A DNA stretch of 64,000 bases. Source: Amphiscolops sp. MND2022. Taxonomy: Eukaryota. The position numbers were made by a program, and so were the translations under genes. Positions within the stretch are counted from its first letter, which is position 1. The number at the start of each line of letters is the position of its first letter. Positions 3,390-5,200 of the stretch are shown one piece after another. The DNA is taken from the NCBI GenBank assembly GCA_964187785.1, contig OZ076409.1, positions 56,050,001 to 56,114,000 on the forward strand, written 5' to 3'. The notes under the pieces are model-generated. The model was given only the letters and a program-made list of their open reading frames with translations, did not search any database and was not told where the DNA came from.

Positions 3390-5200
3390 CAAGTTCAATG
3401 TTAGTTTATTTGAAAATATTCCGGATAATCCGTCCATCATCAGCAAATCTGGAGAAGTGAACAATTTTTTGAATCATACATGTACAAAACAATAACATGC
3501 TTTTAATTAATTTTAAAGAACATAGATGGTCTAAAAATAGAAGGTGAAGGTCAATAACATGATTGACAACAATCAGGAAAAAAACCCGCATCATGTTCAG
3601 CGTCGGTTTCTCTTTATCAATGTATAACGCTTCTAATGTGAGTAGTTTGGTTATGCTCTGGCTGCTGTCCAGCACCTTGTACTCCCATTTATCGGTACCC
3701 GAACAGCTTACCAGGTGGCTCCCAACAGGTGCACTATCTCTCGGGTGTTCAGAGAGTCGTGTTCGTAAGTGTCGAATAGTTTGTCCGACATAGCAGGATC
3801 CACATCCTGTACAATCGATTTGGTAAACAACACGACTTCTGAGGTCCTTAGGAATTGTTGCCTTGAGGGAAGATAGACACGTTTTGAATTTTCTTGTTGC
3901 CAAGACCAACGAAGCGGAGCTGACCTTTCTGATCCGCTTACTTAACCCGTCAATTGTTTTTCCCCAGTACTGTGTGATAAAAAGGGGTCTCTCGCTCTTC
4001 TCCTTTGTCTTTGAGGAATCTGAAAACGGGTTGGGGGTGGGGCTGGCTTGTTTGAGGGTCTTCGTTATTGTGTCGGCAATGATAGGGTTTTAGAAGTTGG
4101 GCGGGTATTGGTTCGCCTCCAAACATGTCTTCAACTTCTGCACACCTCTATAAAACTCTACCCATGATGTTGTGGTGTGATGGATTCTTCCACAATATTT
4201 CGTTTGTATTTGGTTGGTGCACACGCGGGGTTTATTGTTACACCGGTGTCGGTTGGTTTCGAGTACCATGAGCTGGAGAGTTTTCCATTGTCTCTTTTTA
4301 TTAGCATGTCACGAAAAGGCAGCTCATTATTTTCCTTTTCGATCGTTAATTCCAGGTTGGGGTGCAGCATTTTGGCTCTCTCTTCGTTGATAGTTCGAAT
4401 GATGTCGTGGACGTAGCATGCGAAAAAACAGGGCGGGGATGACAATGTCTCAGGCTGCAATGACAGATTCGTGCATTTCCGATGGAACCAGGTGGCACAA
4501 TTTATGCACTGTGCGGAGTAGCCTCTGAGTGTGACTTTCTTCTTGCACTTTCCGCAGATTTCATCATCTTTCTGTGGGATTACTGGCTGTTGAGACCAAT
4601 TGCCAGTCAGTGGGCCCTGACCAGATAGGATCGGTTCGAATTGCTTCATCCAGATTTTTGCAAGATAGACAGATAGTTTTGACCCCATGGCGAGTCCGTC
4701 CACTTGATTGTTCCATGCTGAGTCACAACGAATGGCTACAATTTTAACGGCTATTACCAGGAGGGTAATGAAAGTTTCCCTACTGAATTCCGGAACTTTG
4801 GCTTATTCATACACCAAATCAGCCACAATTTTATGGATTCGTCGACAGGTATTCGTGTAGAGAGATTTCACATCCAGCGATATCATTACTTCCCCATGTC
4901 TAAGTTCGGTGGAAGCTATCGTGTTCTTTATATCGTTGGAGGTGGTCTCGGTCTGGGCTTCTGGCAGTCGCTCCATCCGTCAGGCCAGGGCTGTCAGTGG
5001 AGCATAGCAGCTACCGGGTGGAGATAGAACTGGACGGACTGGTGTGTTCTTTTTATGACTTTAGCTAACCCGTAGAGGCGGGCAGACTGCACTCCAGTAC
5101 TCCGAGCTGCTTTGTAAAAATCTTCGTCAATATCACCATTCTGTTTTAGTCCCGACTGGGCTCTGTTGAATTTTTCTTCAAATAGCAGGGCAAAAGTTTT
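3390..5200 (-). mobile_element. Penelope-like retroelement (RT + GIY-YIG), 5'-truncated and decayed
   Basis: ARLYGLAKV, LDVKSLYTN, GLAMGS, YVHDII (for YVDD), LTIEKENNELPF, WYSKPTDTG; GIY-YIG VVYQIDCTGCGSCYVGQT...RLSEH...LEALYI...KPTLN. Confidence 0.9.
3408..3448 (-). ncRNA. Degenerate minimal type I hammerhead ribozyme in Penelope pLTR
   Basis: Minus strand atttg-CTGATGA-t-ggacggattatcc-GGAA-tattttcaaat; the GAAA box is mutated. Confidence 0.55.

Follow-up and report, generated by a model that had tools for sequence, protein, structure and literature searches.

A PHD finger lies between motifs B' and C of a Penelope-like reverse transcriptase (RT), and this arrangement is almost certainly an architecture in its own right, heritable across a lineage of such elements. 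The preliminary description had proposed, from one decayed copy, that a PHD finger was grafted into the RT at this point; insert-bearing relatives and the RT tree bear this out. The copy lies in what we call the window, the whole stretch of 64,000 nucleotides that was analysed.

The window element is a dead, 5'-truncated element of Penelope/Poseidon type on the minus strand, at about 3417-5200. Its RT and thumb coding region, located by tblastn with the intact relative P0043, occupies 4164-5200 (minus), is likewise 5'-truncated and contains stops and frameshifts. Within it a single open frame (4802-4161, minus) leads from RT motif B' (GLAMGS, 4680-4697) through CGKC-x12-CINC-ATWFHRKC (4556-4473) to a decayed motif C, FACYVHDII (4398-4424, with YVHD at 4415), which reads FARYVDDI in intact relatives; the three were thus correctly placed in one frame at the outset. 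The insert consists of a poorly conserved N-terminal linker that is predicted to be disordered (4557-4640, limits approximate), the remnant of a Pygopus-like PHD finger in which the first six zinc ligands (C4-H-C) survive together with the conserved Trp (4473-4556), and the joint of a 78-bp (26-residue) in-frame deletion that has removed the end of the PHD, namely its helix and W-x-CGC (4428-4457). The end of the thumb, a linker and, C-terminally, a GIY-YIG endonuclease with a CCHH motif follow at 3595-4254, all of these features being on the minus strand; the Pfam match of the endonuclease has an E of 9e-7. The copy aligns with P0043 in two main pieces, at 59% identity (337 columns) and 63%. 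Besides stops, frameshifts and small deletions it has YVHD for YVDD, with His replacing a catalytic Asp, and judged by its coding sequence it is dead.

GLAMG and YVHD are 94 residues apart in the window copy, compared with 30-43 in insert-less relatives and 33 in the nearest of these, close to the figures first given (about 95 against 30-35). Over all six frames the window contains the PHD-like pattern a single time, and none of 60 mononucleotide shuffles contains it. Against the Pfam PHD profile the window insert is a weak match (E 8e-4, 19.8 bits, below the cut-off of 24); P0002, P0003 and P0004 exceed that cut-off. The initial search for relatives returned 31 longer proteins, the top five of which were annotated PHD or PHD_Pygo (PF27108).

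The incomplete ligand set is explained by a metagenome contig. This 1245-base contig, about 93% identical to the window copy, aligns to 3594-4428 and 4457-4711; between these it reads 106 letters against 28 in the window, so that the window copy has suffered a net loss of 78 bp, the last two zinc ligands included. Since this difference equals the 26 residues that are absent from the window insert relative to intact P0043, the final ligands have been deleted in this copy, as had been suspected. The intact relatives carry eight ligands (C4-H-C3) where the window copy has only six. The six-ligand pattern first reported therefore stands, but the missing pair had been expected as CxxC, and in this lineage it is usually C-G-C: the final pair is CxC in most members and CxxC in P0323, which matches the full Pfam PHD profile at 26.6 bits, and in P0006. 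The sequences suggest that the CxC members may bind zinc at the second site in an atypical way. P0230, at 98% identity to the window frame, has the same deletion and may be an allele of the window copy or the same locus. Four of the eight marine metagenome runs listed, from four studies, were compared with the element, and contigs from them cover it, mostly at about 85-95% identity.

After added searches and cluster look-ups the protein set comprised 348 sequences, 198 of which span both motifs. Spacing between B' and C is 30-43 residues in 155 of the 198, and 101-126 residues, with a PHD-pattern insert, in 39; the remaining four are two degenerate PHD-type sequences (P0063, P0312) and two with a spacing of 223 residues and no PHD. 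The 39 proteins, a count inflated by near-copies and by PHD-containing queries, group at 70% identity into 11 clusters, and Y[VM]DD is kept in 37 of the proteins. A less biased profile search gave, among 150 listed representatives, six with long and 93 with short spacing, and 51 in which the pattern did not span the site. The intact family members that the preliminary description had suggested looking for thus exist, with the insert in frame in 11 clusters. In the cluster of P0001 (19 members) six long members share 98.7-99.3% identity and come from as many separate long contig records, and their frames of 800-880 residues keep the finger, YVDD and the GIY-YIG endonuclease core intact. These near-identical full-length frames indicate that an RT with the PHD insert has probably been active recently.

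The sole named members of the PHD clade are two proteins of the acoel Symsagittifera roscoffensis, XP_063724333.1 and XP_063711989.1, which makes this acoel or a relative a likely host of the window; no PHD is mentioned in the accessible main text of the paper on the S. roscoffensis genome (PMC9911081). A pattern search for the DNA of relatives gave one locus out of 75 pattern matches in metagenome contigs, a weak and unrelated match (L001, E 3e-5), and none in viral contigs or genome contigs. Two deposited sequences call for comment. P0006, on a 1.9-kb contig, is near P0043 downstream of motif C, yet its PHD looks different, with a CxxC end; it is possibly chimeric, and we take its N-terminus to resemble a histone H2B tail. 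P0137, an insert-less relative, was deposited under the name of a bacterial metagenome-assembled genome (Candidatus Brocadiaceae) and is probably eukaryotic contamination there.

We built RT trees from alignments without the insert. A quick tree took in the first 80 of the 112 proteins that qualified, and in it the 13 rows with a PHD make up one clade (SH-aLRT 99); in a careful tree of 39 of those 80, the clade has 11 rows, is supported at 100/99 and is nested among insert-less rows. A third tree, on the region downstream of motif C and omitting seven rows that lack a motif C match, places both Penelope-like elements of the window within the PHD clade. No loss of the insert was seen among the 13 site-spanning rows of the clade in the quick tree, and a single gain is the simplest reading of these sequences. 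The concern that other copies would prove to lack the insert has not materialized: 39 of the 198 proteins carry it, and those included in the trees form one clade.

Might the window copy owe its insert to a nested fragment, to an intron or to an artefact of assembly? One in-frame GT-AG pair (4670-4509) could cut the spacing to 40 residues. Such a splice, however, would remove the conserved B' helix and leave half of the finger behind, and the insert stays in frame in 11 clusters, occurs in at least five different lengths, is conserved at the protein level and is bridged by an independent contig. This reading, raised along with the first observation as something that might overturn it, is hardly credible now and already largely refuted.

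Compared in pairs, 10 family representatives are on average 41% identical across the PHD core, 17% and 8% across its two linkers and 46-54% across RT and thumb. Conservation of the core well above that of the adjoining linkers points to selection on the finger, which is apparently maintained. That a permissive loop simply puts up with a captured PHD exon of no use to the element would be compatible with the largely low-complexity insert of 190 residues that the same loop accommodates in P0158 and P0310, and with the degenerate ligand pattern of some copies (P0221, P0241). The contrast between core and linkers argues against it, as do the near-invariant ligands and Trp in proteins whose RT is only about 50% alike and the fact that none of the 13 site-spanning clade rows lacks a finger. 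We consider a useless passenger improbable.

Structure prediction agrees with a finger that is separate from the polymerase. The AlphaFold model of P0043 (42 alignment rows, mean pLDDT 82) presents, in order, the B' helix, a linker below 50, the PHD at 73-81, a second linker below 50 and the motif C hairpin at about 90, the low-confidence linkers being residues 465-476 and 529-541. As modelled, the finger forms a PHD of its own, tethered by two flexible linkers, and the RT fold stays undisturbed and TERT-like. The best structural match of the RT part is telomerase RT (Z 16.2, rmsd 4.0, 381 aligned); Foldseek with the whole model gave diffuse polymerase matches. Because the model keeps the YVDD hairpin intact and the linkers flexible, the insert loop would face away from the active site. 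The original wording, a finger inside the catalytic palm, thus holds for the position between B' and C, but in the model the finger loops out of the palm on its linkers.

Modelled alone, the insert (pLDDT 82) again takes a PHD fold and has Pygopus as its top Foldseek match (E 4e-3). VIA also ranks Pygopus first, at a modest Z of 6.2 (rmsd 3.1, 57 aligned), in a near tie with ATXR5 and Pygo2, both within 1 Z of the top. A profile search with the insert, a kind of check initially recommended, likewise ranked Pygopus PHDs first among 44 PDB sequences (E 7e-12). In the ESM Atlas, where all scores were below 0.9, the insert led to PHD and PHD_Pygo clusters and the RT core to RT clusters without a PHD. 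Weak Pfam matches of the insert to C1_1 and RING were set aside, as both profile and fold searches place PHDs first. Comparison of sequence and fold gave no evidence of a Pygopus gene as the donor of the finger.

To compare the fingers we used 18 full matches, four of 22 having been excluded as fragments, and counted the counterparts of Pygo1 residues along the profile alignment, in which we shifted the register of P0049 and P0065 by one at the CC pair. The counterpart of W366 is Trp in 17 of the 18, that of V350 is Val in 17, and that of A356 is small (S/A/G) in all. In most families the rest of the cage is missing in part: the Y341 counterpart is aromatic in seven and the D352 counterpart is Asp in five. 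According to the accessible text of the Pygo1 study, mutation of W366, V350 or A356 abolishes or strongly reduces binding to methylated H3K4 (PMC2726290), and in the part of a second source available to us the methyl-K4 cage is marked by that Trp, which readers of unmodified K4 lack (PMC3241642). The Pygopus PHD (PDB 2dx8, 2vpd, 3zpv; PMC2726290, as far as accessible) is thus the best profile and fold match, with these three positions retained. The insert finger differs from it in that it is mostly CxC-ended and mostly basic and has counterparts of Y341, D352 and E360 in some families only. Binding by Pygopus is aided by the partner domain HD1 (same source and extent), which has no evident counterpart in the PHD-bearing elements.

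Because the counterparts of W366, V350 and A356, critical for H3K4me binding in Pygo1, are conserved, we favour a tethered histone reader. The Pygopus-like PHD held in the B'-C loop would serve as a chromatin reader: the finger would bind H3K4-methylated tails and so dock the RT-endonuclease on histone H3, and docking would steer target-primed insertion and bias the sites of new copies. We infer this as the best explanation and lean towards it by a modest degree.

The charge of the fingers bears on its main rival. Net charge is +4 to +9 in 12 of the 18, the subgroup of the window copy among them; it is acidic in four, which belong to the P0049/P0065 and P0083/P0084 families only, and near neutral in two. 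The basic charge of most fingers is unfavourable for binding a basic histone tail. A functional finger that binds nucleic acid, whether template RNA, target DNA or nucleosomal DNA, could serve as a module for anchoring or processivity, at least in those subfamilies that are basic, including that of the window copy. Both this charge and the recurring R-G-Y-S and H-R-K-C surface would suit it, as would the sister lineage with a long insert at the same site and C2H2-like remains in it, C2H2 domains being usually DNA-binding. The Trp that divides the methyl-lysine pocket and the pocket base are nevertheless kept in acidic and basic families alike, and we rate nucleic-acid binding as rather unlikely.

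The finger might also bind a host protein or chromatin for a purpose unrelated to where the element inserts: it could keep the element in the nucleus, recruit a cofactor or shield the element from silencing. Such a role would be in keeping with the protein partner that Pygopus PHDs also bind, as the accessible text describes (PMC2726290), and with the 'chromatin restructuring' proposed for transposon PHDs in the portion seen of the Chlamys paper (PMC8557442). A location inside the RT-endonuclease would fit a role in integration better, and we regard this possibility as unlikely. The tethered histone reader remains our preferred reading.

The same loop seems to have received a second insert. 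P0158 and P0310 have 223 residues between B' and C, with pieces that look by eye like C2H2 linkers; no Pfam zinc-finger match was found in that insert. P0206, which lacks the upstream RT, has, upstream of motif C, a zf-H2C2_2 match that is weak and falls below the cut-off (E 3e-4). In the tree on the region downstream of motif C, P0206, P0213 and P0310 cluster at 100 outside the PHD clade, which suggests an independent insertion at the same B'-C site in their lineage. Speculatively, the B'-C loop might be a recurrent docking site for targeting modules, once for an H3K4-methyl-reading PHD and independently for a C2H2-like array, such that the polymerase core itself would read chromatin and acidic and basic subfamilies would be tuned to different targets; we put this forward as a tentative and somewhat doubtful extension.

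In the order of its domains and in its protein motifs the clade conforms to known Penelope-like elements. P0043 has RVT_1 at 310-453 followed by GIY-YIG at 765-841 in one ORF, and the window copy keeps the same order. CCHH, two of its Cys lying within the GIY-YIG core, is recognizable as CTGC...EH...SH in P0043 and in the window. The linker between RT and endonuclease has no CX2-5CxxC finger, with 0-1 Cys in five of six PHD-clade proteins and three scattered Cys in P0093, and the absence of a zinc finger there separates the clade from Neptune and Nematis. DKG is found upstream of the RT in the full-length P0043 and P0093, an N-terminal part that the window copy has lost. There is no IFD, the distance from motif A to B' being 61-62 residues, equal to that in insert-less relatives. 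By these motif criteria the element is of Penelope/Poseidon type, an assignment that rests on motifs, the RT trees containing unnamed relatives only. The clade has in common with Penelope/Poseidon a single ORF, DKG, RT-thumb-GIY-YIG with CCHH and a linker without a zinc finger, together with 5' truncation and, on the second element of the window, a pseudo-LTR and an inverted copy; it differs by 70-90 extra residues with a PHD between B' and C.

A PHD within a Penelope-like RT has already been published, for Chlamys. As far as the accessible text of that study goes, five Chlamys families of Chlamydomonas have a PHD inserted either within the endonuclease or in the interval from RT2a to RT3(A); PHDs are also cited in CR1 and Rehavkus elements (PMC8557442). 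Both groups are Penelope-like elements whose single RT/endonuclease protein contains a PHD, its function putative in either case, whereas Chlamys is green-algal, has its endonuclease at the N-terminus, possesses an IFD and lacks CCHH (same source and extent). The PHD clade has a C-terminal endonuclease with CCHH, no IFD-length excess and its PHD between RT4(B') and RT5(C), and so lacks the N-terminal endonuclease, CxC domain and IFD that distinguish Chlamys and Naiad. On sequence grounds it is a capture independent of Chlamys, at another site. In literature listings and the papers cited here we found no report of a PHD between B' and C, or in an animal element with a C-terminal endonuclease; Repbase, Dfam, subscription papers or the supplementary figures of PMC8557442 may contain one. 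Other mobile elements with a chromatin-reader domain of their own are LTR retrotransposons with a chromodomain and CR1 with a PHD. In LTR elements and CR1, however, the reader sits in the integrase tail or ORF1 and not in the polymerase core.

Little is known of how Penelope-like elements, which are the sister group of telomerase RT, select their insertion sites. Since this clade has a putative reader at a fixed RT position and insert-less sister families, the two can be compared directly, also within one genome, and the small finger can be assayed alone. Natural sequences accommodate 70-190 extra residues in the loop beside the catalytic hairpin, a tolerance that helps in placing fusions and in understanding how RTs are built. 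Should the finger be inert or bind nucleic acid, the result would be a modest addition to element classification.

The window contains a second Penelope-like copy (11464-13450, plus), of another PHD-clade family (87% amino acid identity to P0083/P0084). The truncation lies just behind motif C, so that the insert is absent from it. This element has a clear pseudo-LTR, an inverted 3' copy and two MITE-like interruptions of about 345 bp; a further copy of its 3' end lies at 9815-9991, and 11301-11888 duplicates 9652-10239 at 99.7%. The first element has only a 21-nt repeat, a near-copy (90%) of 3417-3437 at its truncated 5' end (5200-5220), which is either a target duplication or a short remnant of a pseudo-LTR or tail. 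At the 3' ends of both elements hammerhead-like cores (CTGATGA ... GAAA) can be made out by eye, at 3417-3445 (minus) in the first and 13385-13425 (plus) in the second; no Rfam hammerhead match was found in 1-20000, and folding gave no support for either core.

The surroundings of the first element are repeat-rich, and it adjoins a hAT-like remnant. At about 5340-8300 there is a broken hAT-like transposase, with a weak match to the Hermes DNA-binding domain (E 0.01), together with small inverted-repeat insertions. Fragments at 13814-17253 (minus) resemble by eye the decayed remains of a non-LTR element whose restriction-like endonuclease is C-terminal, and have no Pfam match. In the AT-rich stretch at about 24900-36200 the ORFs are decayed; double jelly-roll matches occur in two of them (E 1e-11 and 7e-4), and the stretch is presumably akin to a decayed Polinton-like element. 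Long open frames at 50457-55886 (minus/plus) encode proline-rich repeats with units like QIEMPALKATPKPPE and are probably exons of host genes.
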